This document shows positions 17,313 through 50,520 of a stretch of DNA of 64,000 nucleotides, in pieces. The notes beneath the pieces were generated by a model. That model saw nothing but the letters and a program-made list of their open reading frames with translations. It ran no database searches and had not been told where the DNA came from. How positions within the stretch are numbered: position 1 is the first letter of the stretch; every line of letters starts with the position of its first letter. Source of the stretch: Antedon mediterranea (lineage: Eukaryota > Animalia > Echinodermata). The DNA is taken from assembly GCF_964355755.1 (NCBI RefSeq), contig NC_092674.1:19716001-19780000 (forward strand). Reading direction: 5' to 3'. Position numbers and translations under genes: made by a program.

Positions 17313-18652
17313 GGTTGTTATAGTTTTGATGTTATTTTTTAATGTATTCATCATGTGGAGATCTAAGATGGGATAAACGACCTGCAAGAAACAGGTTAGA
17401 TTCACAGAATATTCTACTGATAAAAATATTGTATATAAAAACCGAACAGAAAAAATTCGATATACAAAACACCTCGGATTATGGTCTATCAAACTGCCAT
17501 TTGGATATGTCGACGCAACTCTAGGAAAAGTGACGCTTTAGTAACGCAATTTACTTACAGAAACAAAGTACATATAATTTTTCCCTCTAAAAAAATGGTA
17601 TCGTCAGGAATATGTTCCCCCTGGCAGACATTACAGAAACAAAGTACAGATATTTTCCCTTTTAAAAAAATGGTATCGTCGAGAATATGTTCCCCTGGCG
17701 GACATACCGCCTGGCAGACATACCGCATGGCGGACAGTCTGCAGCAGGATCTCTATCGTTTTATCGAACTTGAAAACTAACCAAAATATTCAGTCCCCAC
17801 ACCATTGACACGGCAAGGCCTAGGTTTACTCTTGGCCTAGGCTATAGGCCTAGTGGATATAGGTAGGCATCCTACTAGGCTAGGCCTACTAACCATAAAG
17901 ATATTCTCTATGTACTCACTAGCCTAAGCAAGGTAGGTTAATAAAGATATCACCTCGGTCACGTTTCATTTTTGATGAAATGGGGAACGTCCCTCAGGCT
18001 AATTAATAATAATAAATATTAGTTACTACGGAAATTTTCTGTCTCTGAGATGGCCAATTTTATTTATTGTTTTTATTGATTTTTCTTTTGATTCTAATTA
18101 TTTTTGTCATATATATTTTATTTTGTTAATTTTTATAAATTCTATTTAAATTGTCAAATTATATTTTTTGTTAAGGTCCCAAATGATCATCTGCTGGGCT
18201 GGATGATGGACCACCAGCCCTCATATTCATTAATATTTTGAAATATAATAAAACAAACCAACAAAATCCCTGCTTTCCATGTTTCTCTGATCTTGTGAAC
18301 ATCAAAATACAGCGTGGAACGTGGCCTTTCGTTTTCATTCAAATTGTATTATGCTATTAGTAGTATGCTATTAGTATGCTCAGAACATGCACCTGGCTAT
18401 ACAGAATGTTTTTTACATCAGGTGTAAAAAACTACTGGCATTTTCTATTTCTTATGGAAGTTTTTTGTCAGGACTACTGAAATAATTAACAACACTCTAG
18501 CATTGTCATCTCGACTATAAGTAATACAATAATTTGTATATGCTCAATAAACATACATGCCTATAACCTCTAGGCCTATTGAGTAAAAACTTCATTCAAC
18601 CACATACTGGTTATGCGCAAATTGAGTTACCGTAGTGTTTACCAGATTTCGA

Positions 18653-26690: not shown

Positions 26691-29489
26691 CAAAATGTAA
26701 TAACATTTTATGCAAAACAAAAACTACTTAAATGATAGCACTACATAATGCTTGATAAACTGCATTTAAAGTGCCTTATTTTCCATACAGTTAATATTCC
26801 TTTATTGTAAATACAGCCAATACTATTGCCATAAAAAAACTATATAAAAGCTATAAAAATCCAACTAAAGTTTTAAAACAATTTTGGTCACAGCCTTTTA
26901 GGTTGAATACCTTTTATTATGTTCTATTGTTTAGTATTAATCATAATTTGCCCTTTTTTGCATCTATACAAACCAACTTATAAACATTATAAGATCTTAT
27001 AAACCAAAGGCTATATATTTATTTAGCTTATCTAGGATTGTAGCTGAAGAGGTGTACCATCCAATATCATTATATGCCAACAACTGAATGTTGGTCAATT
27101 TGAAGCCACTTACCTTCCATACTTGTGCATGCTCCATACATGTGTCAAGAATGTTTGACCAGAGTGGCAACATTATGTGGGTCGCCTCTCTGTTGCATAG
27201 CTTGATACATAAATTTTGATTTAGATTGACCAACTAGTATTATACATAAATAATTTTGCATATTTTGACCAAAAATGCATCAAAATTTTTCTAGATTAGT
27301 TTAGATAAGGAGTAAAGACTTTGAATGAAGTGTACAAAGTAGACAAACTTTTATACAGTATGTTATTTATTAGTGCTTAAAATGAATTAATTAGATACAA
27401 TATTAAATAATAGTATTTAGCTTAATTTTCTAGTGATGTACATTTATGTTGTTTTCCATTTGTTTAACTACATATCCAACGTGTGTGTGTTTGCATTAAA
27501 ATATAGAAATATTTATGAATTATTTAACCACGTCTTCCTGTGTATAAGATCAGTAATCAAAGATAATTTTGATAGAATTGACATTGTGTATATTTAAACT
27601 TGTTTGTAGGTGCTATATGAATTTAAAAAAATGTCCTGTCATTAACTTTCACACCCTTGGTGACAAAGAACTTTGAACCCCTTAATGATTTAATGTAATG
27701 ATATTAATGCATCTTATTATTTCACTGGCTGTCAGTGGTATTGGATGCCATGATTTTTTTCATTCACTACCCATCAACGGTATAAATTGCATTTTTTTTA
27801 AAGCTATCTATCTGAATGGTGCTTTAAATATATTTATGACAAAAATGTGTGTTTTTTAGCTATATAAATGTTTACACTGCTTCTAGATAGTTTCACTGCT
27901 ATTTTTATTTGTTTATGCAGTTTCTAAATCTAAACTGCAAGTACCAACAACTTTTAGATTAATTTCCATTTGTAGTGAAGTATTAAATCAGTTTATTACA
28001 TTTATTTTAGTTCACATAAAATGTTCTTTTTACTTTTTATGTTCTTAAATATTCCTTCAAACTTGAAGATTATTGAAATAAGGTTTGAACAAAGTATTTA
28101 GAGGATGAAGTAAAGTTGAACATTCATTGTTTTAAAGGTTTTTTTTCAAATTGTATCAAGTCTTAATTTAACATTCAGTTAGTAATTCCCTTAATATTAT
28201 GAGTGTGTTTTAATGTAGAATTTAATCATGTATATATAATAGTGTGTATTTTCCATAGTAAATTAATGAAGAATGTAGTATTGTGATGAATGGTGAACTA
28301 TACAGTAAGTTATGTATTACTGTATTAATGATAATGTAAAGCTTGAACCAAATGACCTCAGGGGTTTTAGGTTATGCTGAACAATAGCCAACCGTACATA
28401 GAGATATCAAACTTGTATATTCTTCTTGTGAATTGATACACATTAGCAATGGCCAGCCATACCATACCATAGAGATATCAAATCTGTATATTGTACATTT
28501 ACAATAATATATTTTTGGTTGAATATTGTATATTCTTTCTTTTGAAAATTCATCTAAATTTAGTATTGCAATCCTTATATCTAATATACAATAATGTGTG
28601 TTACGACTAATTTCTTTTTATTTTTTTGTTAGTTTTATATAATTACCATTAAATTGCATATAAGATAAATAATTGTAGTTGTGTCTGATGCAGATTCAAA
28701 AGGTCAAAATGATGAATGTTTGAGAGCAATAGTACAAACAATTTCATGAGGTGAAATATGAAAGGTTATATTTTTACGTATAAAATTATTTGTTCCATTG
28801 CACAAAGATAACCATTTGAAAGGCATCACTCCAATTTTAGTATTGGAACCAAAGATGTATGAGTTACTAGCAGTTATATGAATTAGTTATATTGGTTTGA
28901 TCATTACCTACCAATGATATGGTGCCATTATTTGTTATTGATGCAAAATTCTGTTCTTCTAGTTGATCCAAAATGTATCAATGATATGAAAAAGTTATGT
29001 GCCGATTCATTAACTAACTATTAACAGTATGCATCCACCAGTTGAGCTATGATGACATCATGCATACTGAATAATTAAACCCAAATACCTTACAATCCAT
29101 CCACATTTCTTTATTTTCTTTGACTGTTAAACTGTAATGTGTTTGATCATGCATAATTGTACAATTCAATCCATAAACTTTATTTTCATATAAAATGATG
29201 TACTTATTATATTTTTCTACCATTATAAAATACCCAAATCTGAGCTTTAAATTTAACAAAACTGATTGAAAGTCTGTCGGATTTTCACAATGTTTTAATC
29301 TTCATTTTTTAGTTTAAAAAAATGTAAAACTGAGTAGTACTGATGGATATATCTATATAAACTACTATGATTATTGTTTTATTCATTTAGTTAACATTTA
29401 AATTTTGGGCCATCATCTTTTTAATTTGGACCATTATCAACAGTTTCAAACAATGACTGCTGGCATAGTTATATCTTTTGCTATATATT

Positions 29490-31790
29490 TCACAAGTTGT
29501 AAAAATCTCCTTCTCTCATTTGGTTTAAACCCATCTTATCTTCGTTAGGCCCTTCTTCGTTCGTACCATATCCTGTGATATAAACTGTTGGACTTTTCTT
29601 ACACTCTTTCATGTACTTTGAAACTTGGTCAAATGAAGCATGTTCATAACTTGAGGATGTTCGTGCATCTACAAGCACTGTTGGTGCCTGGAAAATGCTG
29701 TCATAAACATCTTTGTTGAAGCCAGAATCAGCAGAAAAGCCAAGGATACGCTTACCATTTTGATACAATGTGAAACCTGAGATAAAAGTATTGGTATTGT
29801 TGTTAAAAAAAATAATGTTTATGAGTTGAATGGATTTCACAAGTGAAACTGTTCTTTTCAATGAGGCAAACCTGAATTGAATGAAATGCCACACTAGTCT
29901 CAACAAATGAAATATTCTCCAAATTCATGATTATAAAACATTCATTTATACTGTGTGGGTTGTACCATTTATAACTGCTCTGGTGTTATGTTGTTACAAG
30001 TTTTGAACTTACCATAACAAACTTCACTATGTTGACTTTTGTGTGATATAATATGGAACTTTTCATCAATAGAAACATTTTGACCAGCCTTACAAACATG
30101 CCAAGTAACATACTTGGAAAATTGCTCCTAAATAGAAAAATTCATGAAGAAATATTTTTGCTATTTCTACGTTTCAGTGTTAGGTGCTGATAAAAATGAG
30201 AGTTCAAATTGTGAAAAATAGTAAAATGTGAGAGGAAATACATGTGGCTATTTTATCAAAACATTGTATCTTGTTTTCTGAAATTTACTTTTTGTATTCA
30301 ATATGTTGGCATGGTTACTGTGCTAAATGGCGATATTTTTAGAGCAACAGCCAATAGGAAAGAAAAGTTTTTGTTTTTGTCTTGGTGGCTCATAAGGTTT
30401 TGAACATTCCTGGAAAAATTCTTTGCATGTCATTTTGTATGTCTTCTGCTATTACAGAAATTATTTCCAGTGGATGCAGTAAATTACATTTTTAAATAAG
30501 TTTAAACATGTGGTATTATAAAACCGGCACACAAGCTTTTAAGTGTGTAATTCTGCTGCCTTAAGTACAAAAATTTATTCAGTAAATGCAAAATGTTAGT
30601 ATGCCTTTTATTCTCAAGATTTTACTAGAATAACCCATGTAGCCTACAGGTATTTCAGATATTCTTAATGCGTACCCTTGGAAATGCACTGTATATCTCA
30701 TCAAAGCGATGATCCATCAGCTTCTGTTGTACTTCTGGTCCACAGTATAAGTGAAACTCTGGTTTAAGATTTAGCTTTAACATTTCATCTAATGTGATAA
30801 TCAGGCCCAAAGCTAACTCAGCAGCATGGTCTGTGTGGTTGTGTGTAATGAAGATTCTCTTTGGCAACATGTTACCTGGAAGAAATTTATTGTTAGTTTA
30901 TTGTATTAAAAAACATTGCTATTTTATCGTTTACCATGGATAAATAAGAGAGAAGGATTTGTATTGATCTCAGATAATACATACAATTTCACTTTCTACC
31001 AGCATGTGGACCACCCACAATGTTACAGAATAGAAAACGTCTTTTATCAACACATGCACTGTTGATGACGGAAACTAATATATATATATATGTATTACAT
31101 AAAAGTTAAAGTAGGTTTCTTGAAAACAAATAATTATTATTTTTTGCATGAGCATTATGTACAGCTTTTGCATAAAGTAGTTTACTGATTTCTAGATAGC
31201 TATTTTCAATCAATTTGTGGTATACTCTATAACAGTACAGGATAAAAGCCAACAAACCAATTTTCTCTCTGTAAGACTGAATCACGCCGAGTCCAACATC
31301 AACCAAAAACATAGGTTCTCCTTTTCGCAGAAGTACATATGATGAACTTGGGTCTCCATTTAACACAGCTAAAATACAAACAATAATACTAATAATAATA
31401 ATAATAATTATACTGTATATCATATTTCTGTTCTTTTCCATAAATATATAAAAGTGATGATCTGATTACATTTGAATGGTAGTTTATCAAAACATAATAA
31501 TGTTTGTTGTAAAATTGAAAATAAAATGTAGTAGTCTTTATTTATTCAATTATATTCTAAAATGAAAATATATATTCTATAATAGCTGCTCATATCAACC
31601 ATCTTCATTTGGGAAGGAGTAGTATCATAAATTAGCATGTCATATATATTTGTGTACCACTAAATGAGCATATTTGAATTAACATCAACTCTACTTTAAC
31701 ACTTCTTACACACTAATTTATTATTGAATCATAGACCTACTTGTCGCTCCCTTTCCAGTTCCAAGGCAGAGCAACTGCACATCAGCCTCC
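29490..31790 (-). other. Metallo-beta-lactamase fold hydrolase domain (RNase Z / cyclic-nucleotide phosphodiesterase-like)
   Basis: LGTG start, D of motif I, HxHxDH, His and Asp of motifs III/IV, HAS motif; the usual final His position reads YITGYG. Confidence 0.88.
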
Positions 31791-34700
31791 TCATCTTTAA
31801 TTGATTTTCCAGCTAGTATAGCCAACGCCTTCTCTGCAGTCGCCCGTACTGAATGGGGCTTCAAACAAGCTTTTAACATGGCTACCATATTTTCACCATG
31901 TTTTTCACAACTATTCTGGAAAATAAGTTGCATATAAATTCCAAATCTAGGTCTTCAGTTTAATCTTAATTTCAAAATCAAGGACACACAATAAAAGTTG
32001 CGAAGACGCATATTAAATCTAGATTTTCATAGCCACCAAAATTAAAAGTAATTCAGCACTATAAACATACAGACATCAAGTTTCTGCATACATAATTGAT
32101 TGCATGAATTTCCTGTGTTACATTATACACAGTAGTATATTACTTACAGGTAGAGCAGGTGCATATGATTGGTCAGTAGCCTTTTTCTCAAAGACGATAT
32201 TTGCGTTGAAATAATCTTCAAATACATATCGTCCCTCAATTGCTTCTATCAGCAAAAGTGCTTAATTAAATAAAATATAAATAGAACAGTAATAATTATT
32301 TTTCAAAAATACATTGCGTGGGCGAGGCATGACAATTTAATTTCGGAAGGATCAACTTTTAGACATATACTGTATACTTTTAGTCTTACTTCAAATTTTT
32401 TATTGTTTATTTATTTATTATTTATTTTTTTTTTTTATTGTTTTTGTCTGCGTCAGTAATAGGTACGCCCTCCACAAGATGTGTTTTTCATCTTTCTGGG
32501 CTTGTACCTTCTTCTTTCGAAATTTGTGTATATATTGTTCATTGAAATCAATTTTGTATATGAAAGGAGAAAATAAATGTTGCTTTGAATTGAATTGAAT
32601 TGAATTCACTTAGGCACTATGAGGCCACTTTAGAAAAAGACAGTTAACACTATAATATTTTTGGATTTATCTCTAAATAGGTTATCAAAAAACAATTACG
32701 GTAAATCTTCTAATAGTAACCCACATTCTAATAGTAAACCCCTTCTAATAGTAACCCACCTTATAAGTCAATCTATAATAATAACCCACTACTCTAATAG
32801 TAACCCACCTTATAAGTCAATCTATAATAATAACCCACTACTCTAATAGTAACCCATGGGAGTTACTATTAGAGTCACAAAAACTTGATGCAGCCGTATT
32901 TTGAAAATAAGGAGATAATGCATGTTGATCTCGGGAGTGAGTGTTTCTGAGTTTATAAAATAAAGTTCAACCAAATTTGTTTATTCGTACTGTTTTATTA
33001 TTTATGAGTTGCTGACCAGAAGTTGGGGGTGGGTTACTATTTTCAGGTGCCTAATTTAAGATTAGTAACAGTAACCCACTCTAATAGTAACTCCCCTTCT
33101 AATAGTAACTCCCCTTCTAATAGTAACCCCCCTTCTAATAGTAACCCACCCTAAAAAACAATTAAAGAATAATAACCCAGGGTTACAATTAAAAGATTTA
33201 CGGTATTGTTTAGAACTTCTCCTTTTCCCGGCTACAAAATACAAAACACCAGTACCCACCATAGCTATAGACATCTGCTTTAAATGAGTTTATATATACT
33301 AAAGGTAAAAAAGGTAAAAGTTAAAACAACACAAAGAGAATGTCGAAAGATAGTTCTATAGGAAAAAATATGGCAAACTAAAAGTGGGTTTTCAAAATTC
33401 TTAACATTTGAGATGAACCTAAAGTGATATGGACACTGTGTTATAGTATAATTTTATTTATTGAACGTTTTTAATTCCCACAGAAAACCCCTAATTGTGG
33501 TAGCAAATCTTTGAACTTACTCTAGAGATTTAGCTTCTTTTTTGAAAGCTTCAATTATATCTTGCTGTTCACCTTGTAACTCTTTGAGCATCTTCAAGGC
33601 AAACACCTTTCCTTCTCTGTCTGTTACTTTGTAAACTTCTCCAAATGATCCTTTTCCAAGAAGTTTCATAGATTTTGTATCGTATTCGTCACTACTTGAC
33701 AGAATCTGCACATCATGTAAACTTAATAATTTTTCACGAACTGCATCCTGTAAAAAAACAAAATTAAAACCAGTTAATATACAGGCTTTTGTTTTCACCT
33801 AAACAATGTTAATGACAGTAGAAAAGGTAAATAAAAATTATTAATTGGGAACTTGTGTTACCTCTAAAACATGTTCAACATTGTCACATTTGATGACAAG
33901 GGTCAGTAATCGGAGAAGTGAGTTGTCAGAATCCCAACCAACTGAAACACTTGTGTCATATGTGTTCCTCCGTTTGGCAACTTCTTCCCCATTGATAACA
34001 ATAAGATGAGTAGTGACCTTCTTTGAACTTGTTGTAGCAGTATCTGCATAGCAAATTGCTTCATTTACACCACCTGAAGGAACAAAAAGATCCCTTAAAG
34101 AAATTTGATGTTTCAGGAATTTCAATTAGGGAACAAAAATGTTTGGTCACATAATAATTATTCACTTTGACCAAAACTTGGATTTAAAACAAGAATTATT
34201 TACCTAAAAAACTGTAATTTAAAGCAAAAACTAGTAAAATTGCCTGCCAGCCAATGGGTTTCAGTGGAATTTTATCCTTTCATTTTGTCTCTTTTTATAT
34301 TTTTTTTAACAGAAATGATTAACTTTAATAAATCTACAAAAATTCAAAGTCTGATTTTAATCTTCATTATTCATGTTTTTTGGGGGAATAATACATCTTA
34401 CATAATTATATATTAAATTACATTTCTAGAAAAACATGTCAGTCAGGATTAGCAGACAAGTTGTTGTTATCAAAACATTATAAATACTATGTGTGTAGGC
34501 CCTAAAATTGTTAATAAAAAAAATCAATGAGGACACATGGTAATAAAGCGTGGTTCCCACTAGCGACGCAACACAGGGACGTAATGCAACGCAAGTGAAT
34601 TGACCAATCACAAGCGATGGCTTATTCGCTATTTGCTAACTGTCTATAACTTCGCTTGTCATTGGTTAAAACGCTTGCGTTACGTAGTTTACGTCCTTGC

Positions 34701-37700
34701 GTTACGTTCTAGTAGAAACCAAGCTTAAAAGTGAAAGGAGTTTATATAGGCTACTATAATGATAATTGTAGTTAAACACAAACCTTTTAATTTAATGTAC
34801 GCGAAAGTGTCGTCTTTCAACCGCTTGTAAGCCTCTGTTCCAATTTCCGCATCAACTATGACCAACTCCAAAGAATTCTTAGTTTTAAGGACAGACTTGG
34901 ATTGGAGTATGACCTCTGCATATTTTCTCAAGGCCATACAACGTTTGTCTTTATCTGGTTGGTGTTCCAATTCCTCAACAACAGCTTGGTAAAGGAATGT
35001 CGCAACTACAGGTGTTTTTCCTAATTCAATTACCTAAAGAAACAATTAGCTTGTTGTTTATTGTTAATTTTTTAATGTATTCAATTGAAAATAATAATGT
35101 TCAAAAAAATGCTTTTTGCTCCTCAAGATTAGTAAATTATTGCTACTATACAGGGGCGGATCCAGCATGTTGGAATAGAGTGGGGGAGGGAGGGGGGGCA
35201 GGTCAGACAGCAAGTACAAAATTTGCTTCGCCACAGCCCCCGCAGCAATCAGCAAATCAGTAATAGTAATTTACAGGCAGTAAAAACACAGACATTGTCG
35301 ACAGTGTTTTGTTTTGCGTTCAATGCAATAATGCTGTACATGGTTAAGGCGATAGGTATATGAAGCTATACCACCCCAACCAGCCTCAGACAAAAAAGCA
35401 CTTGGCATACCAGGAACTAATTTGGCGTAGGAAAAACACCAGGCCTGGCTGCCAACCACCCCCTACTCCCCCACCCTTGGATTCACACCTGTTATACTTA
35501 TTAAGAACTGACGTGAAGCAAACATTACTATAAAATCAGATTTTAAAAAGGATCATTTTGATCCCTAATGTTTTTCTTGAATAACTAAAATAAATATCAA
35601 ATGTAACACTAAAAAGTTGATACATCAGTAGCAATTCAGTAATTTTTTTTTAAAAGACACTTGCATTTAATAGATTTCTTCTTCTACCCTTCATAGCATC
35701 CATTGCTGCTTCAATTTGCTTCTCTTGGCTTTCTCCTAAAACCCACAAGTGAAACAACCATTACAGAGATTTTCATAAAAAATGTAAAGAAATAATAATA
35801 TGACATTGGCAAGACGTTATTCATTGACTGCAAAAGAATAATTTACCTAATAGTTTAAGTACAGTAGAAAGAAAGAAGCACTGAAAGGACATTATGATTA
35901 AACAAGTCAGGCTGAAGCTATTTTTTCTTCAATCATATAACAATTCATTCAGTTATTACTTCTTCTTTGCTAAACTTTCAACAACAAAAAAGTTATCAAC
36001 TTTTTAAACTTCTGGTTAGTCAATTAAAAAAAAATCTTGTTATTTACCAAAAGGATCATTACGAAAAATTCTTTCTAATGAAGGTTTGGATTCCTTTTCA
36101 AGTAATTCTAGTGTAGTCAGTGCGTTAGTTACTTTTGTTGTATGGAAATGAATTTCTGTTGCAGTTTTCTCCAGAAGAAGTTGTTGAGTTAAATAGTTCT
36201 CACGTTGAGTTGGCAAAAATGAGATCTCACGAATCTAAGAACACAAAATACAAATCTTCTATAAAAGTAGCAGAATAAATGTTTTGGAAAGTAAGCACTT
36301 ATTTATGGAATACTAATAGAGGCATGCTGTTGCCATGAAAAAAATTAACATAAAAGATGGTGGAGATCATGCAGCATGTTATGGATAAAACTCCTGTAGA
36401 TATAGAAGTAGAGCAAATTTCATTTGTGACAACCTCAAAGGTGTATCAAAGAATTGAGTGAGAAAGCACATCCAATGCTGTTATAAATATACAAAATAAA
36501 CTCAAATTTAATATTGATACAAAGGTCAACAGACACAGGTAGATGCTAACCTCTCCAGGGGTAATTTCAGATATTTCTCTGATGACATCCCCACTTTTTA
36601 AATGCAGCACAAATTCCCATAACTCCATATCTGCCATTAATGTTGTAAGTTGACCTTCTTGTTCAATTTCATTTTTATTGCTTTTCAAAAAACAAAAATG
36701 TTCTTTCTAAAAATAAAAATAATTTAAATGATCAATTTCTAATATCCTTTTTGCAGTACATAGGTTACAACTTTATAATAAACTGTATTTAACTAACACA
36801 GTGAAACCTTTCAGTTAAAAATGAGGGTATAACATGCGCATTAACAATGTTTATGTCTGTCACCCCCAAACTTGACCCAATATTGTATTGCTAAAACTTA
36901 CAGATGATGGTGTCACAAATCGCTGAATGAAGTTTTTGTACAGACTGTGTTTAGTATCACAACCAAGAAACAGAACATTTCTGCTGTTGAAAATGTTTGT
37001 AAGTTTGGCTGTCAGTCTGTTCTCCTCCTGGTGCAGCAACTCAAATTGTTTTCTTGATTCATCCTATTTATGTTAAAGTATTTTAAGTAAAAATTAAATT
37101 AATTCACCATTGACAATATTTGTAAAGAAATATGATGTGGAAATGATAATTCAATAAAAAAGCATTAACTTTGTATACATACTGTCACAAACATAGAATA
37201 ACTTTTGTCCCCAAACAACTTAACAATGACCTGCCGGTCAAGATTGTTAACTTCTGGCAATCTTGCAACCTATAAATTAAAAATAGCAAATATCTAACTA
37301 TATATCTCAAAAGAAAATAATTCAAGGATATTTCAATTAAATACAAATAAATACATGTTTCTATATTTCAAAACTAGAAGTTTAAAAAAAGTGACAGTGA
37401 ATATATTATTTTAAGAAAATTTTATTTTCAATTATCTAATCTAAAGCCGGGAGAACTTTAACCACATACTGTATGTTATGTGCAATCTGAACAAGGATTT
37501 CCTTTTTAGAAAGATACCAATATAAGGATTTTGTTGTGCAAAAATACTTAATTCATATTGGGCAGGAAATTTCAAATTGGGCAGGAAATTTCAAATTGCG
37601 CAAGTACTGTATTTTGAGTATTTGATCCCAAAGCTTACTTTTTAATATCCAAATCAATAAATATTGCAAGTAATAATATTTATTAATAATTACTTATAGA

Positions 37701-40700
37701 ATAAAATGTTAAAAATATAAAGAATAAACAATTTTTGTTATGTTTTAATAAGAGAGACAAAAAATTGAATGGAAAATTAGGCCTACTTTCAGAGAGGCTG
37801 TGATCCTCTCGCCCTCTTGCCGCTGCGTGGATGTTATGATGAACTAATATTGCGTTGGTATTTTATGCCAATATGAATGTGGGGCTTCCCCTTTTTATGC
37901 CTACTAAGTTTCAAGATTAAAAACATTTTATTGGTCTACTTAAAATGGAAATTCATTTTTTTTAGCATTTAAGACAATAAAACATTACAAAGAAAAATCT
38001 CAAATTACAAACATGCTATAGGCCTAGGCCAATGTTAAAATAATGTTAATTAGGCCAATGTTAAAATACTTATCACAATATTTTTTTGTTTGTTCAAATT
38101 GCGCAGCGCAATTTGAAATTTCGCAAGGCAAATATCTGTGCAATTCAAATTGCGCAAAAAAATTCTTGCGCAAATCGTTCAAATTGCGCATAACATGTTT
38201 TATCCCATAAGAGGTAAACACGAGGCCTACTAAGTTGTTAGTGACAAGGGGTAGCACACCTTTTCCACAATTTTTTTATTTTTTATCATTATCTTCACTC
38301 TCGTGTCTTGTAATGTATAGCATTTGCAGCAAATATTAAATCAAACCTTGATCATTACCTGTTCCAATGTAATTTTATCTCCATCTGTTCCAGATTTCCA
38401 CAAAAAGTGCTCCAATAATTCATCAATATTTGTGGTGAAAATGATAGGAACTTTACCAAGCATGCGAATGGCACCATGGAAACGAGATTGCCGAGCTTCT
38501 GGAGCATTGTCTCTGATGTAACGATTTTCAAGATCAGAAATCTTCTCTCTTGTCAACTATAAGGTCAACATTATTGTTAGCGCACTGTCAATCAACCTGG
38601 CCAATTTTAATCTTTAACTAGATTTGAAATCGTCACTTTGACGAGTTCGGGTTATCCGTGCAAACGCAACATGCAATTACGTTAAAATATCAACGGCAAC
38701 AATTATGCCATCCTATGAAATGAATTAAATATATTGACAGTGCTGAATTGTACCTATTTTGTGTCATAAAGCATAACAGTATTTACGAAATACACTGTAT
38801 ATGTTATATACAGTGTAGACTTGCCCCAAGTCTGTATTATCTTTTTTTTTTATTTATTTGTTTTTATTTCGACCGCGATTTTTGTCTGAAAATACAGACT
38901 TGTGAAACACGTATAGAAATCGATTTGCAGGCCGCAAACATACCATAAGAATGACGTAGGTTATCATACCGTATTTGGCTATATGGGGCGGGCGGTATGT
39001 AAATATGGATTTCGAATCAACCAATTATCATTTTTTTTCAAAATGAAAGAGATCGAGTACGTAGGCCTACCAGTGCTTAATGTACGATCGAGACTGTTGA
39101 AATATAAAATAGTAATGCCAAGTTGTTTTGTTAATTAATTGTTTAGTCCTTGGCCTAGGCCTCTTTCCTAGGTCCTACTCAACTCGCACGTATGACCTGC
39201 CAAATAAAACGCCAATGAAGTAGGCCTACATACCACCGGCACACAACAGGGCTACACCACCACACAGAACAGGACAGGGCCGGGTCTGGGTGGGAATTAA
39301 ATCAAAATTATCTCCGCGTAATAAATGATCCATTCAATGTTTGATTTGCGGAGAAGCTAGCCTATCAAGTATCATATATCAAGACGAGTTTTCATGTTTC
39401 AAAGATCCCATCAAATGTTTACCAGACTACTAGGCATATAAAATAATTTCTAGCCTTCAGAACTTTCATAAATGTACCCAAGTACACATTGTCTAAACGT
39501 AACGGCGCATGCGCATCATCTTAGTTGTTGAGTCTTTGAAATTCTTAAATATGAATATTTAAACGGTGTACGAGAGAGTAGCCAATCGCATGCAGCTGAA
39601 ACTAGTCAACCGGATAATCGTATGCACCAAGAATTCTTGGTGTCAAACCACGTGACTTGTGCGTGTTTCCCCAGACGGAGTATCCAAAATCAAGTAGTAT
39701 ACGTATGAAACGCCATATGTGCCAAAATATTTATCTTTTAACTAATATTAAGACAAAACTCCGTCTGGAACCCAGACTATATACAGTGTAGCATAGATGA
39801 AATTACGAGACCCATCTTTTAATCCAATTTTTAACATGATGTCATCAAAATGAAACACGTCGATAGCAATTTTGGAAGGAAATTATCGGAGCAACAACAT
39901 ATCAACATGTTGAAGAAATTTGGATACGTAAAATATGGAAGCGCGCTCTTTTAAATGTCATGAACTATGAAGCAAAATATGAAATTACTTTTATAATTGA
40001 ACTGGCCATATGATGACGTCACAACATCCGATGCGAATAATTTGTACATGAATTCGTATCTACAATTCAACAGCTTCCAGAAAATGACTTAATCATGAGT
40101 ATCACTTTTTATTCTGAGGAGCTATAGCATATTGAAATTGATTGGAAAGATGAAAATAAGTGACAGGATGACGTCATAAAAATTTTAAAAACGGTATATC
40201 ATGCGAAAGATAATTGATTGACCTAGACAATATCAAAATATGGGGGGAAATGGAATACGGATAAGTGGAGATGTGCTCAGACTATTAAATGTGATGAGCT
40301 ATGACGAAAGAGACAAAAATCCTATATTTTATATTTGAATAGCCATACGATGACTTCACAATGTCTGGTTAGCCATAATAATGCATGATCCGATATCTAC
40401 AACTTAACAACTTCCAGAATGTGTAATAAAAATAAACTTCACCATGTACTAGAATCTATGACTGTTTAAAAAAAGGCCTAATTTTGACAATTTTTGGAAC
40501 TTCTTCTTAAAAAACACGTGCGAATTGTCCAATTCGAAGTGTTCGTATGACGTGATTATAAGTCGAAATTGTTTAAAAGTTGGTAAAATTACTAGAAAAG
40601 GCTAGAAAAAAAAAAATTCATGCTAAAAACGTTAAAAAAAAAAAAAAAATTTGCATGCGCGTGGAAATTTGTATATGCTTAAAATGACATGAAATGCGTA

Positions 40701-43700
40701 GAAAAGGGATTAGAATTTGATTTTTCGCATTTTAACATTTTAAACACGCATACGCGCAGAATTTTATGTGCAACACGCCATTTTTACTTGAAGGGAATTT
40801 GACCCTTGATATGATTTATCATTTTCTCAAGTTTCAATAACAAATTTAAGATAAATTTCAAAAAATCGTATAGCAGGCCCGTAGCCAGGGGGGTTTTTTA
40901 TGGTTCGGGCGAACCTCCCTTTTACAGCAACCCCCCCCCCCCCCCTTTTACAGCAAACCTCCCCTTTACAGCAAACCGACTGCGAACCCCCATCCCCGAC
41001 ATGCCTAGTACCTCACCCTCATCTCCGAAAATCCTCCAAATACGTGCCCCACAGTAAAAAAGTTGTTTGTAAATTGAAAAATTTGTAAACTCGTTCGTGA
41101 ATAACTCATACAGTATACCTAATTCTTCCCTGTATGAGCGTACTTCGAGCGATAGTGTCTGTAAATTTCTAAGAGTTGCAAATGAATTGCCGATTTTAAC
41201 CTGAAAAATAAATGTTTGGTCCGTGCATGTAACATGATATTCACGCGTATCAGCAAGCTGGGACACGAACGATTCGTACAAAGGACACCGCAAGACAACT
41301 GTGTACCTATTGTTTAGATCACTGGCAGTCAGGCAGCATGCATAAAGTATATAGCCTTCCGACGTACATCATTATTTATGTGTGGCTATGAAATATAATG
41401 TATCATCATCATAGAGGATTAGTGAATATTAATATATTACACATAATATCTATGGTGGTATCATGTACTGTAGTTCACATTATGGCATCAGATTATTTGT
41501 TTCTAGACCACCAGCCGATACGTACTCAACTGTATCAATATCACCTATTTACATTGGCATATTTAATTTTCTCAACAAAGTGCTGTAAATAATTATTATA
41601 GATAGAGCTATAATAAGAATTGAATTTGCCTTCACCCAGTGTGCTTTTTTCGGGGCTTCTTCTAGACGTACGTTCGCATTGAACTTGAACGCAAAACAAA
41701 ATACTGAGTGAATGATCAACCAATCGGCAATTCCGCACAGAGCACGCGCATCTAAAGCCTGTTTTTCTGTCGACGTTATTCGACGCCATCGTTGTTGATC
41801 GTTAACGATCGTTTGAAAACGATTAAATGACAACGATAGCGAGTACCTTTTCCTGTAAATCATTAACATTTTAATTTTAACCTAGAAGATCGCCGATTAT
41901 TGTTAACGATACCGTCGAATAACGTTGACATACATACGGCAACAAATGTTATCGTCCATTAAATAGTCCACGGTCCAAGTACGATCGTTTTGCTCATTGG
42001 TAGCATGCTGCATGAGAGTGTCTTTTCCGGCCATCTAGGGGTGTCATTAAAAAAAATTTGCTTCGCCTCAGGCCACACCCCCAAGGGGGGGGGGGGGGGG
42101 GTGACCCAAATACTTAGTGTCCGAACCCCCCTTGACACATCCTGGCTACGGCCCTGTATAATCATGCGTCAACTTGGACAGCACCAAAAACCTTATTACG
42201 ACATCTTCAGATAGAGGTCAATCTTATAAAGATATAAAATGTTATGTTGAGAAGATTTAGAGATACACATGCAACAAAATTTGTGGAAAGAAAGAAGAAT
42301 AAGATAAAAAAAAAATATCCTGACAATAACAAGGGGTTATCCGCCAAGTGCGGATAACCAAAAAATATTGCAGATTATATTCATAATATTGTCCATCTGA
42401 ATAATAATTGTTTGAACTTCTTATACTTCAATAGAGCAATTAGTTTTTCACTTTGACCAAAATTGGATTGAAAAAAATGTGTTTAACTAAAAAAACTGTA
42501 ATTTAAAGTTAGATGCTATAGAGGCACCATTTACCAAAGGTAGGCCTAATTATTATACATGAGCACTGTAAGCATATTCATATTTTAAGAAGGTCAATAG
42601 GTCACCTCAACGTATAGAGCGCAGATAGCATGCACCGTGTGTGTGATTTTCATATGTGTGTGATTTTCATATGTTTTTCCTTTTCGTGTATCTAAGAGGC
42701 CTAAATAATGTTGTGTTTCTGGTGTCGGTAGTCAGTTTGGTATTTGTTAAGGAAACTATGATTTTATATCAGGCTTGTGAGTTTTTATTTTTAATTAAAT
42801 AGACATGACCCTAATAAACCTATGATATAGCCAACCAATTAAATGGTACCTAACTATTTAATAACACAGTAAAGTGTTGCTTATCACAATTTCAGTTAAC
42901 TTTCACATAATAAACACAGTAAAGTGGTGCTAATCACAATTAAATGGTGGTGTCTCAGCATGGAGGTATACCTCCATGGTCTCAGTTACCTTGTATTTAA
43001 ATCCCCCTTCCCTACGTTTTTTAGATCTAATTTAAGATCACAAACTATATTTAATGTAAAAATAATACTATATGGTCCTATTGCGATAACTTTTTTCGTC
43101 TTTAAACGGTTAAAAATGTGAAAAATAAGTCGATTCTAATAATTATAGCGGCCCGCTATAAATCCCAAAATGCATTGCGCGCGGATTGATATTTTTGTTT
43201 TTCATCTGTAATTCGCCCACTTTTCGATCGATCGTGAGGCCAAAACAAATGGAAGACAATTAATGCAGCAACTATACAACGTCAGGCTAGGTATATAGCT
43301 AGCGTATGATGTTCGTACGTTACCAATGTTTACCAGCTAGGCCTACAAAACTAAGCCTAGCTAGGCTAGGCCTAAGACTGTCCACGAGAGGTCGATCGCC
43401 GCGAGCTACTTAGGTAGTGCATAGTTTCTCACTTTTTATCATAATTTACCATAAAACGTACATTTAAGACAAGGAATGACATGGTTTAATGTTTTTAAAG
43501 TGATATATATGTATTATTTTCTAAAAAACGTCCAAAATTGCAGGGAAGGGGTCTTTAATAAACACATTAAAAAGTGGTGCCGATCACAAATAAATGGTCC
43601 GATACCTCAGTTAAATTTTATTTAATAAAGCAGTAAAGTGGTGTTTATCACAATTAAATGGTGCCTCAGTTAACTTTTATTAAAATAACACAGTAAAAGT

Positions 43701-46641
43701 GGTGTTTATTAATAAAAGTTAACGGAGGCACCATTTAATTGTGATGGGCACTACTTTATTGTGTTTATTAATTAAAAGTAGGTACCATTTACTTGGTGGC
43801 TATATCATAGGTTTATTAGGGTCATGTCTATTTAATTAAAAATAAAAACTCAAAAGAGCCAGATATAAAATCATGTTATGTTATTTCAATATGATGGAGA
43901 TAGCAGAGGTAGACTGCACAGAGAGACAGACGTTACACGACACATGGATGATGAAGTCTACCTATCACGTGTTGTGCGCTGCACGAACGACGATAGCCGA
44001 CGACGGTCGGCTATTTACCCGGATTGTCTATTTTTCGATAGGGTGTACTTTTCATTAAAAAGGAACATAGTATCTTCAATGAATGACGTCTTAATCTTAT
44101 CAAAATCAAATATTTATGCGTTATGCATTTTAGAATCTGCCAATTTAATGTAGTTTCATATTTTACCCTTAATAAACTTTCCTCGTGCGTGCAGTGCGTC
44201 AGTAGAGTATACAAAACAACATTCAAAAAAATGGTAGAGTCTAACAGAGATTTAACTAAACACACACATTATGCATTTTATTGCGGACTATTAATACAGC
44301 TAGCTGAGCAGGGCCGGCCGCCGACTTCTGTGTTGTTGTTGTGTATAAATAATCGGGATGGTATAAGTTTCTCCCCCTGACAGAAACGCTTTGGCGCAGC
44401 CTGAGGGATGGAAAGACGTGGTACTCCGTGCTTTGGCCTAAATTATCTGTACGTTCAACAACGATACGAGTGTTCATTTGCTAGGAATTGTCCTCAATAT
44501 TTTTAGCATACGACGTACATATTTTATAGGCCTAGGCCGCCGCTACTGCACTTTCGCAACTCTTGAGCATACCCACTTTAAAAACATTCACCGGCTGCAC
44601 GGCGGTGACGGTGAGTGTCAGTGACCGTGAAGTCTTAGGACACGATTTTCGCCTGGTGGGTACGGAAGCCATCAGACAAATGACCAGCCAACCGTAAAAA
44701 ATAAAAATAACATAGCGTTCAGGGGATTTCAGAAAACTGTAAAATGTTTCTTATTAAATTCATAACTGTATGAATCCTGTATGAATAAAACCATTTTGAA
44801 CAATTGTTTGATCATTGTTATAAAATACAACGAAAATGATTATTTTTAATATAGTGATTTAGGCATGGCTCTCTCTCTCTAAATGCCTTACAAAAACCAT
44901 TATTTAAAACATTTTTTATTTTGGCTAAAAACCAGTTCATTTGGCTAAAAAAAAAAATTGAACTTTAGCCATTTTGGCTATAGATATTAAACTGATTTGA
45001 CTGAAAAAAATATTTTGATTTTCGCCAAAAGGCTAAACAAAATGAAATGTTAGTGCTACCCCAGTTACTTGCTGCTGCAACCACTTTTATTTTTCAAGGC
45101 TACAGTGCATCTTCTCATAAAATAATCGCCGTGGCTAAAGATACGGTACTGTATCCATACTTCTAAAAACTAAAGGTACGTTAATTATAAATTGCATTCC
45201 TAAATCTGGATCCTTAATATAAAACTCATTCCTAAATATTAAACTCGTTCCTAAGTATTAAAAACCTAACCCTCTAAATAATAAATAATAATAATAAATT
45301 AAAAACTAAAAAAAAAAAAAGACCATGCAACTTATTCCATTGCCCCAAAGACCCACATCATAGTTCATTTACTACTAACCAGAAATGTAAGAAAAATTAA
45401 AATACTGTATCATAGGTCTGCTTTTGAATGAAACAGGGTTCACCCCTCACAAGAGACCAATTGTTGGTTGGCTACTATTCTGGGTTCCTGACAGAGTTTT
45501 GTTTTAATATTAGGTAAAAGATAAATATTTTGGCACATATGGCTTTTCATATGTATACAACTTGAGCTTGGATATTTCAGACAAAAATCGGAATAAAAAC
45601 AAATAAATAAAAGACAAGTCTAGTAGGCAACTTACAATTCATTCTTTGGTAAATAAAATAAAAGACAAATTTCAAACTTTAATTAAATAGGATGTTGGAA
45701 TGGTCCAGTAGAAGGCTACCGTTCAGACCAAATGAAGACATATGATACTGAGCAAACACAATCCATCCAATATAGGTTATGGAATATGGGCGGCCATTAG
45801 GGCCAAAATAGACAAACGTTGCTTTACGAACAATTCCGCTTCCGTAAGCCAAACAAATGGCGTTAAAAAGACATTATCCACTCCTGTAAGCCAAACAAAT
45901 GGCGTTAAAGACATAATTCATCGAGTGACAAACAAATATTGCTGTACGGACAAACGCACACATTGCCGTATGAACAAATTGCCGTTCATACAGCAATGTG
46001 TGCGTTTGTCCGTACGGCAAAATTTGTTTGTCACTCGATGAATTAGGTCTTTAACGCCATTTGTTTGGCTTACAAGAGCGGATAATTGTCGTATTCGATT
46101 TAGACTTTCACCGTTGAGTACAGTTTTTCCGTTGAGTACTTCTTTAACGGAGAATTTTGAGCGTTGAGATTGTTCTTAACGAAAAAGCTTTCGTTGTCAA
46201 CGTTTTCTATTCGAATGACTTTCTGTTGAGCACAAATTTACAATTCAAATACAAAAAGTACTCAACGAATCTTTACGTTGACAACGAAAGTTCCCAATCG
46301 AATACGACAATTGTCTTTAACGCCATTTGTTTGGCTTACATACAAGAGCGGATAATGTCTTTAACGCCATTTGTTTGGCTTACGGAAGCGGAATTGTTCG
46401 TACGGCAACGTTTGTCTATTTTGGCACTAATGGCCGCCCATAATGGAAGACATTTTTTGTAGGCCTACGGTATTACCTGAGGATTATCAGCATCTACATG
46501 GCCCCACCACTGATCAATCGTGGCTGCACGAGGTAGAGCAGATTCACCCTCTCCTATAACAAGTAGCAATTCCTTTTCTTTTATGAGCTTACGGAGATCT
46601 TTTACCCCATCGAAAAGTGTTCTATTGTTACGACCTTCCAT
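29490..46641 (-). CDS. Multidomain protein: SIR2_2-like Sir2 domain + uncharacterised middle domain + incomplete protein kinase + MBL-fold metallohydrolase. Exons (5'->3'): 46641-46477, 38556-38359, 37269-37183, 37063-36902, 36706-36551, 36234-36048, 35735-35665, 35033-34784, 34073-33862, 33747-33521, 33298-33260, 32260-32148, 31915-31741, 31368-31258, 30875-30676, 30127-30013, 29776-29490
   Basis: Exons joined through AG/GT (one GC) sites with matching phase, except at 33521/33298. Sir2 motifs: LLLVIGEGES, IFTTNIDELLE, VIVKLFGD, VLFLGCD. Kinase motifs: LLGKGSFGEVYK, FALK, KADVYSYALLLIE, CLKPHSVRAT. MBL motifs: LGTGKG, LVDVG, ITHNHTDH, QHSEVCYG, FSADSG, EHAS. Confidence 0.85.
32420..32606 (+). 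mobile_element. 3' tail fragment of a LINE/SINE-like element
   Basis: aaaataaatgttgctt followed by a (TGAAT)n tail. Confidence 0.4.
32696..33205. mobile_element. TA-flanked Tc1/mariner-type MITE with ctaatagtaaccc subrepeats
   Basis: tacggtaaatcttctaatagtaaccc ... gggttacaattaaaagatttacggta inverted termini; internal 18-bp repeats. Confidence 0.75.
34544..34727. mobile_element. Small Harbinger-like MITE
   Basis: taaAGCGTGGTTCCCACTAG ... CTAGTAGAAACCAAGCTtaa; a related internal fragment occurs near 62955-62995. Confidence 0.6.
35151..35491. mobile_element. MITE with CAGGGGCGGATCCAG-type termini
   Basis: caggggcggatccagc ... ttggattcacacctg imperfect TIR with G-run/C-run subtermini. Confidence 0.5.
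38617..42360 (-). mobile_element. Helentron-type non-autonomous element (family A, reverse orientation) interrupted by younger insertions
   Basis: 3' hairpin+CTAG end at 38617-38660 and 5' palindrome gttatccgc...gcggataac at 42336-42359; body is the reverse complement of 54730-56313 and 56320-57831. Confidence 0.75.
40873..42156. mobile_element. DNA-transposon-like insertion with CAGG(C/G)CCGTAGCCAGG inverted termini
   Basis: caggcccgtagccagg (40873) vs cctggctacggccctg (42141-42156), nested in the Helentron-type element. Confidence 0.65.
42758..43875. repeat. Foldback structure: ~100-bp inverted arms enclosing ~55-bp subrepeats and the Kolobok-like MITE
   Basis: gtttttatttttaattaaatagacatgaccctaataaacctatgatatagcca (42781-42833) is inverted at 43797-43849. 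Confidence 0.8.
42997..43558. mobile_element. Second copy of the TTAA/Kolobok-like MITE (inverted relative to 2730-3364, with an internal deletion)
   Basis: ttaaATCCCCCTTCCCTACG...GCAGGGAAGGGGTCTttaa; near-identical internal sequence. Confidence 0.85.
45787..46442. mobile_element. Long-TIR foldback MITE with a nested smaller inverted-repeat insertion (~46084-46311)
   Basis: tatgggcggccattagggccaaaatagacaaacgttg ... caacgtttgtctattttggcactaatggccgcccata; nested attgtcgtattcgatt ... aatcgaatacgacaat. Confidence 0.85.
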
Positions 46642-46840: not shown

Positions 46841-48150
46841 TTGGCTAAAACAGTCAACAGATTTGAAGATTAATACGTGGTGTAGCAAACAATCCTCTCA
46901 TTTTCTAGCCTAGAAGATAAATTGACAAGTTGATCTATTGAAAAGTAAGTATAGTGTATACCTTTCTTGTATAAAATACAAGCTAACAAACAAATCCGTA
47001 AAATGTTTTTGTCGAATTCACATAAAGGCAAGATGTCAGCAGGGTCTGCTCTCTAGACTCTCAACGCAGGCAGAGAGGAAGAGGGAGCTGTTCAGTATAC
47101 ATACGTCTAGCCTACAATGTGTTTGCCAGAATAGACACAAAAAAAACAGGTTCTCATTTTCTGTCAATAGATACTTTCCGGTTTATCCTTATGTTTTTTA
47201 TTCAGGAGGAAGTCTTTGTCTAGGTAGGAAAACCCGGATTAACTACTTCAGGACCAGAATAATTTATGTTTGGCTATATGTGTAGCAGACCTACCACATA
47301 GCTTTTAATTCAACAATTACTTTTAATTTGATTATTTATACATCCTCTATATATCTCTTTATTTAACCTCACATTGACAGGTTACCTTCACTTTTCTAGC
47401 TAATGGATTTTAAGAATGTTAATGACTCTAACAGAAAACCACATTAATTCTCTTAATCCTAATTGGTCAGATGAGATGGGCCAAGCCCAATATTACCATG
47501 CACTGACCACAACACACTCTTTTCTCAACTAGTCGTGTAGCTACTTTTATTGCTCTGTGTTATCAAACATTGTATATTGTATATTTTATCTGTTTATTGA
47601 GAATCCTCACTTGATTCACTTGGAATAAATGGCATACTTACTTTATACATTTAGTAGTTGTTTTATTTTACCGTTGCGCCGACAATTACTAAATATGCAA
47701 TTGTAAATATTTGATTTCTGTTCTTTGATACATCACTTCAGTAATGTTTGTCTTCAAAAATTGAAACATTTGTATAAAATATTCTAGTACTGTAGAAGTA
47801 TAAATGTAACTGCATAAGCTAAGACATAATTTACCTTTTCTGATTTTTTTTTTTTATTATTTTATTAGATCCTTGTTTTGACATTTAAATTTTTTCCGTC
47901 CATCTTAATCACCCATTTGATAATTTCCACCTTGTCGCCTTCACTCCTCGGACAAATCATTGCTATCTGTTCCTTGTTTCTGGACTAAGAATAGTGGACG
48001 CTGCTTTTCTTTTATTCCAAAACAATGCATAACTTCTAATATGTATCAACCCTGGCAATTAGTAACCCCACCCCAAGCTAAATTGTGACAAATTAGTAGA
48101 AATAAAACAACTACAGTAAAGTAAACACATTTTTTTGAATTAACTTACAA

Positions 48151-49896
48151 ACTCATACTGTAGGTACTCATACTGTAGATACTCACACTGTAGATACTCA
48201 TACTGTAGATACTCATACTGTAGATACTCATACTGTACTAGTACTCATACTGTAGGTACTCATACTGTAGATACTCATACTGTAGGTACTCATACTGTAG
48301 ATACTCACACTGTAGATACTCACACTGTAGATACTCACACTGTAGATACTCATACTGTAGATACTCACACTGTAGATACTCATACTGTAGATACTCATAC
48401 TGTAGGTACTCATACTGTAGATACTCATACTGTAGATACTCATACTGTAGATACTCATACTGTAGATACTCACACTGTAGATACTCATACTGTAGGTACT
48501 CATACTGTAGATACTCATACTGTAGGTACTCATACTGTAGATACTCATACTGTAGGTACTCATACTGTACTAGTACTCATACTGTAGATACTCATACTGT
48601 AGGTACTCATACTGTAGATACTCATACTGTAGATACTCATACTGTACTAGTACTCATACTGTAGGTACTCATACTGTAGATACTCATACTGTAGGTACTC
48701 ATACTGTAGATACTCATACTGTAGGTACTCATACTGTACTAGTACTCATACTGTAGATACTCATACTGTAGGTACTCATACTGTAGATACTCATACTGTA
48801 GATACTCATACTGTAGATACTCATACTGTAGGTACTCATACTGTACTAGTACTCATACTGTAGATACTCATACTGTAGGTACTCATACTGTAGGTACTCA
48901 TACTGTAGATACTCATACTGTAGATACTCATACTGTAGATACTCATACTGTAGGTACTCATACTGTAGGTACTCATACTGTAGATACTCATACTGTAGAT
49001 ACTCATACTGTAGGTACTCATACTGTAGGTACTCATACTGTAGGTACTCATACTGTAGATACTCATACTGTAGGTACTCATACTGTACTAGTACTCATAC
49101 TGTAGATACTCATACTGTAGGTACTCATACTGTAGGTACTCATACTGTAGATACTCATACTGTAGGTACTCATACTGTAGATACTCATACTGTAGGTACT
49201 CATACTGTAGGTACTCATACTGTAGATACTCATACTGTAGATACTCATACTGTAGGTACTCATACTGTAGGTACTCATACTGTAGGTACTCATACTGTAG
49301 ATACTCATACTGTAGGTACTCATACTGTACTAGTACTCATACTGTAGATACTCATACTGTAGATACTCATACTGTAGATACTCATACTGTAGATACTCAT
49401 ACTGTAGGTACTCATACTGTACTAGTACTCATACTGTAGATACTCATACTGTAGGTACTCATACTGTAGGTACTCATACTGTAGATACTCATACTGTAGG
49501 TACTCATACTGTAGATACTCATACTGTAGATACTCATACTGTAGGTACTCATACTGTAGATACTCATACTGTAGATACTCATACTGTACTAGTACTCATA
49601 CTGTAGGTACTCATACTGTAGATACTCATACTGTAGGTACTCATACTGTAGATACTCATACTGTAGGTACTCATACTGTACTAGTTAGTACTCATACTGT
49701 AGATACTCATACTGTAGGTACTCATACTGTAGATACTCATACTGTAGATACTCATACTGTAGATACTCATACTGTAGGTACTCATACTGTACTAGTACTC
49801 ATACTGTAGATACTCATACTGTAGGTACTCATACTGTAGGTACTCATACTGTAGGTACTCATACTGTAGATACTCATACTGTAGATACTCATACTG
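48151..49896. repeat. 15-bp minisatellite (g[a/g]tactcatactgta), over 100 copies, with periodic 17-bp variant units
   Basis: Directly visible; units containing ctagtact recur irregularly. Confidence 0.99.
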
Positions 49897-50520
49897 TTTT
49901 AACACTTTTGGTTGATGAACTATCAAACACTATACTGAAATATCTATATTGTTTAATTAAAATTGGAGCAGTCATCTACTTGATAAAAATATTGATATGA
50001 ACGAATTGTTTATATTTTGTTGTTATTATATTATGTTGTTTGCTTTTACTATTAGAATAGTGAATTATTATCACTATAGATTAATATTTAGGATAGGTTA
50101 GTATTACTATAGAAGGGGTGGGGTTGTTGCTAACCATGATAGCATGACAAACAATATACACTATCTACAATTGTTCTGGGGGAATTGTTTTTCTGCATAC
50201 TGTACTGTATACTGTAATGCTGACTATGTGTACATATACTTAACCTTTTATCCTTGCTGAATAGGCCTACTTGTATTACTACTTGAGATAGCTTTGATGA
50301 GGTATAATATAAGAGATAAGGCTTTTATAAACATCATTCAATCTGTATTATAAAGTTAGTTTTATTTACAAATGACAACCATTATTTATATTATTTTTTA
50401 TTCACTTTGTTTTTCTATACTTATATATTGAACAAAATAAATTTAAAGCCAATTTCACTTCTTAAATTCAAAGGTTAAAAACAAAAAGCAACCTAACCTG
50501 CTGTTATTATACAATTCTCT

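Follow-up and report, generated by a model that had tools for sequence, protein, structure and literature searches.

The 64-kb window analyzed here (64,000 nucleotides of Antedon mediterranea contig NC_092674.1) carries on its minus strand a spliced animal gene, which we read, at roughly even odds (about 0.5), as a member of an old family that derives from a fused bacterial unit and would encode a nucleotide-gated signaling protein, the copy in the window having lost its kinase core.

A spliced gene with collinear animal homologues

By the exon model and its splice sites, the gene runs from an ATG at 46641 to a stop at 29490 and comprises 17 exons with a summed length of 2,755 nt. All acceptors are AG and all donors GT except for a GC at intron 7, which confirms the 17 spliceable exons of the initial annotation. 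Its placement of the first SIR2 exon some 8 kb upstream also held, as intron 1 measures 7,920 nt, and the motifs that it listed (GEGES, TTNID, KLFGD, LFLGC and HxHxDH, the last in the form HNHTDH) were all found in the exons. The features are as follows.

46477..46641, minus strand: exon 1, ATG at 46641; first SIR2 strand and GEGES loop, aa 1-55
38359..38556, minus strand: exon 2, SIR2 TTNID, Asn98 retained
37183..37269, minus strand: exon 3, SIR2 KLFGD, Phe140 at the catalytic His position
36902..37063, minus strand: exon 4, SIR2 LFLGCD
36551..36706, minus strand: exon 5, end of the SIR2 domain
36048..36234, minus strand: exon 6, start of the HKD-less PLD-fold (DUF5753-like) domain
35665..35735, minus strand: exon 7, PLD-like domain; GC donor
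34784..35033, minus strand: exon 8, PLD-like domain
33862..34073, minus strand: exon 9, end of the PLD-like domain
33521..33747, minus strand: exon 10, linker, then the N-lobe of the kinase with Gly loop, Lys and helix C
33299..33520, minus strand: intron 10, 222 nt; kinase subdomains IV-VIII lost here, phase clash
33260..33298, minus strand: exon 11, kinase subdomain IX (KADVYSY); frame lost if spliced directly
32148..32260, minus strand: exon 12, remnant of the kinase C-lobe
31741..31915, minus strand: exon 13, subdomain XI of the kinase, then the first strand of the MBL
31258..31368, minus strand: exon 14, MBL
30676..30875, minus strand: exon 15, MBL HNHTDH motif
30013..30127, minus strand: exon 16, MBL SQH motif
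29490..29776, minus strand: exon 17, MBL SADSG, DAR, EHAS and TGYG; stop at 29490
28181..29489, minus strand: likely 3′ UTR, its end near 28181 derived from the offset of a 1,597-nt X1 contig

A search with the last exon returned 29 candidates, among them a protein of Amphiura filiformis whose cluster includes a 1088-aa form, and the window exons align in order to residues 28 to 1083 of that form. Whole four-domain proteins of 1070-1090 aa were found in this brittle star, in two acorn worms (Ptychodera and Glandiceps) and in the coral Pocillopora verrucosa, so that the proposed search of invertebrate proteomes did recover the same architecture; identity between the 17 exons and three full-length deuterostome homologues is 41-48%. 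Because single animal proteins hold the same domains in the same order, the SIR2, kinase and MBL exons can be taken as one gene, as had been claimed, and the collinear homologues in Amphiura, Ptychodera, Glandiceps and Pocillopora support the earlier view that bacterial contamination is not involved. An ORF at 31074-31000 was considered as an additional exon and dropped because the homologues run through this position without such a segment.

The family varies in composition. In an intronless coral-like contig, the PLD-like domain, kinase and MBL lie in one 915-aa frame and the SIR2 start lies in the preceding frame. An Acropora protein (P0006) has the first three domains followed by a different C-terminus, the MBL being replaced (precomputed PF27628), and Branchiostoma proteins (P0009-P0016) have SIR2 joined directly to MBL, without the PLD-like domain and the kinase. 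Pocillopora meandrina has several partial gene copies on one contig. Eukaryote-like, non-animal SIR2-PLD/MBL relatives were also seen (P0152, P0172, P0053, P0130, L106, L108, L110-L116 and P0025, the last a green alga by name), and the module may be spread more widely in eukaryotes.

Some signs of transcription came from X1, a putative RNA run of another study. One X1 contig of depth 290 stops at 29777, which is the last acceptor, while contigs of depth 15-26 cover 29748-30040, 30099-30704 and 31886-32177, corresponding to introns 16, 15 and 12 plus roughly 30 bases of exon at either end; DNA-like runs, unlike X1, cross the same intron borders continuously. This pattern is as expected from a mixture of spliced and unspliced molecules and hints weakly at expression of the gene. 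Placement of the X1 contig reached 28800, the remainder of the 3′ UTR being extrapolated from the contig offset, and ATTAAA occurs at 28226 and 28214, above the putative transcript end near 28181.

The kinase core is missing from the window copy

In the homologues the kinase is complete, with Pkinase scores of 172-180 bits and HRD/HGD, DFG and APE all present, and subfamily profiles gave flat scores of 87-104 bits with no clear subfamily. The window copy is without subdomains IV-VIII (about 121 codons), so that the catalytic loop, DFG and APE are gone; the motifs flanking this part are 127 residues apart in P0043, a relative that is 70-77% identical, as compared with 6 in the window gene. Exon 10 encodes an N-lobe with the Gly loop, Lys and helix-C Glu in place (Pkinase E 1.8e-5). 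The kinase part of the initial annotation was thus overstated for this copy, in which the N-lobe, subdomains IX and XI and a C-lobe remnant are left. A profile search for the missing core across the 64-kb window gave a best E of 2.3, and a control profile found exon 12 at E 7e-13.

With exon 10 finishing in phase 2 and exon 11 opening in phase 1, direct splicing shifts the frame and stops at codon 578, leaving a product of 577 aa, and the single frame of about 900 codons that had been described does not follow from the exons as they stand. Because direct splicing breaks the frame, such a model requires a weak alternative donor at 33572, which opens a 900-aa frame but scores 3.9, below all 16 donors used by the gene (5.6-10.7). 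The frame-restoring options at intron 10 comprise three microexon candidates and this alternative donor, the two that were scored being weak (3.9 and 2.7). The window copy would then either yield a 577-aa protein of SIR2, PLD-like domain and kinase N-lobe or be decaying; alternatively, use of the weak donor would give a 900-aa kinase-dead form.

Fragments of a relative from Amphiura stop at the same point as exon 10, and the exon 10 donor is therefore likely to be ancestral, with whole exons having been lost. The remnant kinase exons are 41/51 and 58/88 identical to P0043, a conservation equal to that of the other domains, and the loss is therefore likely to be recent. A recent loss, together with the fact that the data come from one DNA sample only, is what one would also expect if the lesion were an assembly error or a single rare allele and the organism had an intact gene. 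We regard that explanation as very unlikely, since contigs of three runs of this sample (X2, X3 and X4) span 33260-34175 without gaps, the X4 contig with 4 differences, which suggests that both haplotypes carry the loss. Protein P0039, which is identical letter for letter to the frameshifted 577-aa product, also speaks against it, although P0039 may be a gene model derived from the same assembly. We did not accept it as independent transcript evidence, given this possible origin and an Ile where an X1 contig has Met. Taken together, the kinase of the window copy is very probably broken, and this copy is poorly suited to testing. Whole proteins are available from Glandiceps (XP_077996235.1) and Ptychodera (XP_070571493.1).

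A SIR2 domain with a replaced catalytic histidine

The SIR2_2-type assignment of the N-terminal domain was upheld by both profile and fold. The spliced N-terminal half (P0039) scored 50.2 bits against the SIR2_2 profile, for which the cut-off is 24.5, and a structure model of the 577-aa product (pLDDT 88.4, pTM 0.85, 52 sequences in the alignment) matched KomC over residues 13-243 (Z 16.3, rmsd 3.9, 214 aligned) as well as the folds of ThsA and FAM118B. The catalytic Asn (ThsA N112, FAM118B N163) corresponds to Asn98 and is retained in all 37 animal-type sequences that cover the site. The catalytic His (ThsA H152, FAM118B H206) corresponds to Phe140, and this position is Phe, Leu or Tyr in 17/17 animal-type sequences, although many of these are closely related coral fragments and the 17 are not independent. 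The GAG (NAD) loop has a Glu in 35/36 animal-type sequences. Among bacterial-type sequences the His is kept in 28/34, and in 7/7 of the operon-linked whole bacterial SIR2 + PLD-like proteins.

As judged from these residues, the animal SIR2 domain is likely not an NADase, because the catalytic His is replaced in every animal-type sequence compared, and the NAD+ cleavage previously ascribed to the protein was overstated. It is conceivable that the domain still cleaves NAD by a His-independent route, as a NAD-depleting death effector under the control of the kinase and the MBL. The retained Asn, the near-invariant Glu of the NAD loop, the modeled SIR2 fold, which is intact, and the presence of Asn in place of the His in 4/34 bacterial-type sequences would fit such a route. 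We nevertheless consider it improbable in view of the His replacement and of reports that His mutants of SIRanc/FAM118B are inactive, the H206A change in FAM118B blocking NAD processing (bioRxiv 2024.09.18.613514 and PMC12700824; H206A, PMC12700824).

The SIRim/SIR2_2 NADases (KomC of Kongming, ThsA, DSR2 and Avs5) have the SIR2 fold and the TTN motif in common with the animal family, and ThsA also has an extra C-terminal module after SIR2. The animal proteins differ from them in the catalytic His and the GAG loop, in a partner domain that is a PLD fold rather than SLOG or Macro, and in the fused kinase and MBL. FAM118A/B (SIRanc) are likewise animal SIR2_2 proteins and gave the best sequence match among solved structures (E 6e-8), with a fold match of Z 13.4. 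However, FAM118 is a single-domain protein with an essential H206, whereas this position is replaced in the four-domain family, in which the FAM118B D255 column is, by eye, not conserved either. Similarity between the four-domain family and bacterial SIR2 + PLD-like proteins spans both domains, which makes an acquisition separate from that of FAM118 likely; FAM118 lies outside the sequence set of the trees described below.

The middle region has a PLD fold without the HKD motif

The middle region, which the initial annotation could not assign, was identified from the structure model as an HKD-less, DUF5753-like PLD fold at residues ~255-485. Matches to the PLD enzymes SauUSI, NucT, Nuc and Zucchini had Z scores of 10-11.4, the highest being SauUSI (Z 11.4); over residues 256-480, NucT matched with Z 11.1 (rmsd 3.1, 147 aligned) and the DUF1669 domain of FAM83B with Z 10.5 (rmsd 3.9, 152 aligned), while TrmB gave Z 10.2. 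The HxKxxxxD (HKD) motif is absent from the conserved strands of this domain in both animal and bacterial members. The bacterial counterpart resembles DUF5753 and XRE C-terminal domains (TM 0.72-0.77), and the DUF5753 profile matched weakly in 3/43 proteins scanned. The HKD-less PLD fold is thus common to the middle domain, to DUF5753/XRE C-terminal domains, to TrmB and to FAM83 DUF1669; it is joined to SIR2 here and to helix-turn-helix domains in DUF5753/XRE systems.

The MBL domain is closest to Apyc1

The HxHxDH hydrolase assignment was confirmed, and by both fold and profile the closest relative is Apyc1. A model of the amphioxus SIR2-MBL protein (pLDDT 63.5, better in the MBL half) has Apyc1 as its best fold match (E 3e-13), and in profile searches of the subfamily phage Apyc1 ranks first (E 4e-14). 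RNase Z has a tRNA-binding arm between the second His and the Asp; no such arm was seen in the animal MBL, where the corresponding spacing is 22 residues, as in Apyc1, and the RNase Z match ends at chain residue 152.

The HxHxDH motif, the next His and the Asp are intact in the window gene, and these residues, together with the HAS motif, align with Apyc1/YhfI. Identity with Apyc1 is ~20%, however, and the animal MBL is fused in a large protein and belongs to a subfamily of its own with a GTGKG..GEPSS start, unlike Apyc1/YhfI. At the C-terminal His position of the Apyc1 LMHY motif, 8/9 animal proteins have TGYG or IGYG, the motif being unrecognizable in the ninth. This change of the last His to Gly is also found in several stand-alone members, and the His is retained in the adjacent MBLs of L001-L006. 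Further motif losses occur in one coral allele and in P0038; the MBL is degenerate in P0038 and in P0033/P0012 (Pocillopora). In PMC9117128, Apyc1 is described as a class II cNMP phosphodiesterase with catalytic residues E74 and Y112, and the related YhfI as preferring cAMP/cGMP. A conserved Glu/Asp lies two places before the likely E74 column, the match in numbering being uncertain.

A bacterial gene pair and its probable fusion in animals

A profile of the N-terminal half matched 238 proteins at E <= 0.001, and among the 150 listed the long ones consist of SIR2 + PLD-like domains, their catalytic motifs being intact. Bacterial-type proteins of this kind match both animal domains with E values of 1e-27 to 1e-33. 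Some bacterial SIR2 proteins have TIR, CHAT, trypsin, EAD11 or kinase domains in front, and in L004 CHAT and trypsin domains precede SIR2 + PLD-like. A GTDB scan returned at least 336 relatives, of which the best 80 loci were examined. A whole SIR2 + PLD-like gene was present in six of them (Chloroflexota, Acidobacteriota, Bacteroidota and one unplaced bacterium), and in all six the adjacent gene belongs to the MBL subfamily (E 1e-75 to 1e-104), as compared with 0/74 of the other SIR2 loci, which gave one weak MBL match at 8e-8 and some of which have short flanks. The MBL profile had been made before these loci were retrieved. In five of the six pairs the two genes are codirectional and separated by +6 to -14 nt, and in the sixth they are convergent, with two MBL copies. 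Tandem MBL copies beside the SIR2 gene were observed at L005:2112-4038 and L100:2270-3872, one with an apparent signal peptide (by eye).

In the reverse metagenome search from the MBL (80 of 108 loci kept), a SIR2 neighbor was found at L099 and L103 (the same as L005 and L006), at L104, which is new and whole, and at L100 and L105, which are cut by contig ends; L101, L102, L109 and several eukaryote-like contigs have the MBL without one. Counting the seed genome each time, SIR2-PLD occurs in 1/401 and 1/301 genomes and the MBL in 4/401 and 1/301, and in three of the four MBL-bearing genomes among the 401 the MBL stands without a SIR2 gene. We consider the unit of SIR2 + PLD-like and Apyc1-like MBL (L001-L006 and L104) a candidate undescribed bacterial system, and the frequent occurrence of the MBL alone counts against our main reading.

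In trees of the separate domains, the animal sequences form a single clade among bacterial-type ones, with support of 100 for SIR2, 100 for the PLD-like domain and 97 and 99 for the MBL. These were quick, midpoint-rooted trees that do not fix donor or direction; in the SIR2 tree 4/90 rows were too short and amphioxus was lost along with two degenerate rows, and in the quick MBL tree 10/42 rows were dropped. The animal MBL groups with the L005/L006 type (99). The PLD-like domain of the animals shows a weak affinity for the L001-L004 type (86) and lies beside two long branches. Within the MBL tree, corals come first, then amphioxus, then the window gene with the brittle star and acorn worms. These trees support a single origin that predates the coral-bilaterian split; a bacteria-to-animal direction would follow from the bacterial sequences being much the more diverse. 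Since the bacterial neighbor genes are SIR2-PLD and the same MBL, the animal gene is best read as a fused two-gene unit; from these comparisons, we consider it quite likely that this bacterial unit was fused around an inserted kinase.

No description of the four-domain fusion or of the bacterial pair was found in the literature, in which subscription papers were thinly covered, nor in the accessible parts of PMC8195603, PMC13069673 and bioRxiv 2025.09.30.679545; the words "kinase" and "lactamase" are absent from the main text of bioRxiv 2024.09.18.613514. The impression that the architecture is undescribed thus held, and the animal family and the bacterial gene pair are apparently new to the literature.

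Proposed mechanism and alternatives

We propose tentatively, at somewhat less than even odds, that the fused gene encodes a SIR2-PLD sensor with a kinase as output and the MBL as reset. In bacteria, SIR2 would be an NADase effector restrained through the PLD-like domain, which would sense a ligand or partner as the same fold does in TrmB and FAM83, and the neighboring MBL would destroy a small nucleotide signal and so set the threshold. In animals, where the catalytic His of SIR2 is gone and its NAD loop has acquired a Glu, the SIR2-PLD module would bind a nucleotide or oligomerize and thereby switch on the kinase as a new output, with the fused MBL acting as the reset. The sensor-kinase model leaves the amphioxus SIR2-MBL proteins, which have neither PLD-like domain nor kinase, unexplained. 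A more specific form seems doubtful as a whole: an undescribed bacterial defense pair, of a SIR2-pseudo-PLD NADase and an Apyc1-like off switch, would have been taken up complete, before corals and bilaterians diverged, and turned into a nucleotide-gated receptor kinase, in a marine invertebrate immune pathway based on a Pycsar-type cyclic mononucleotide or an NAD-derived signal.

RNase L and IRE1 have a sensor, a kinase and a hydrolase in a single chain. They have no sensor or nuclease domain in common with the animal family, and the likeness is one of analogy only. By that analogy the MBL might be the effector, a nuclease or phosphodiesterase switched on by the kinase, and it does start only ~10 residues behind the kinase; amphioxus retains exactly the SIR2-MBL pair, and MBL domains are reported to act as effectors in trypsin-MBL defense modules. 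However, the MBL is closest to the Apyc1/YhfI cNMP hydrolases and not to nucleases, it decays or is replaced in P0038, in one Pocillopora allele and in Acropora, and in bacteria it often stands alone, so that an effector role appears unlikely to us.

The surroundings of the bacterial pairs bear on whether immunity is involved at all. Among 19 chosen neighbors scanned, defense-type genes lie beside two of the six pairs: restriction-modification, TIR, patatin and kinase-helicase genes at L006, and an AAA_21/DUF4276 pair and DUF488 genes at L001. The scanned neighbors of L002, L003 and L104 (Lon, DUF885 and a peptidase) are not defense-like. In viral contigs the two-domain gene occurred in 0/18 loci, the SIR2 part alone being matched, and plasmids gave no SIR2-PLD match and one weak MBL match. 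That most scanned neighbors are not defense genes, that these viral and plasmid searches did not return the two-domain gene and that some MBLs start with an apparent signal peptide (by eye) would suit a pair serving ordinary nucleotide clean-up or cAMP-type signaling in both bacteria and animals. We think this quite unlikely because of the very patchy presence in genomes given above, the N-terminal fusions of bacterial SIR2 proteins to TIR, CHAT, trypsin, EAD11 or kinase domains, and the matches of the SIR2 part, and of that part only, to the LmuA, ThsA and Dsr models of PADLOC (library of 2023) in 19/20 members.

The uptake of defense-type domains by animals is an already known kind of event. 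The known cases of bacterial defense components in animals mostly involve one domain each, as with cGAS/STING, gasdermin and viperin. SIRanc/FAM118 is another such case (bioRxiv 2024.09.18.613514). In the present family, the two genes of a bacterial unit seem to have been taken up jointly and linked around a kinase, the effector being disabled, which would show a path from a cell-death system to a signaling receptor. Two testable objects result, namely the candidate bacterial system and an Apyc1-like enzyme in animals; the substrate of this enzyme would point to a nucleotide signal in invertebrates.

Other features of the window

Exons of a LIM-domain gene lie at window positions 22494-24374 on the plus strand, convergent with the 17-exon gene. 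Retrotransposon fragments with a broken reverse transcriptase (RVT_1) occupy 1566-2515 on the minus strand. Long ORFs of 140, 150 and 240 aa at 59255-61006 on the plus strand contain a repeated low-complexity unit and have no Pfam match, and long tandem arrays at 48144-50000 and 18583-19191 give rise to repetitive ORFs.
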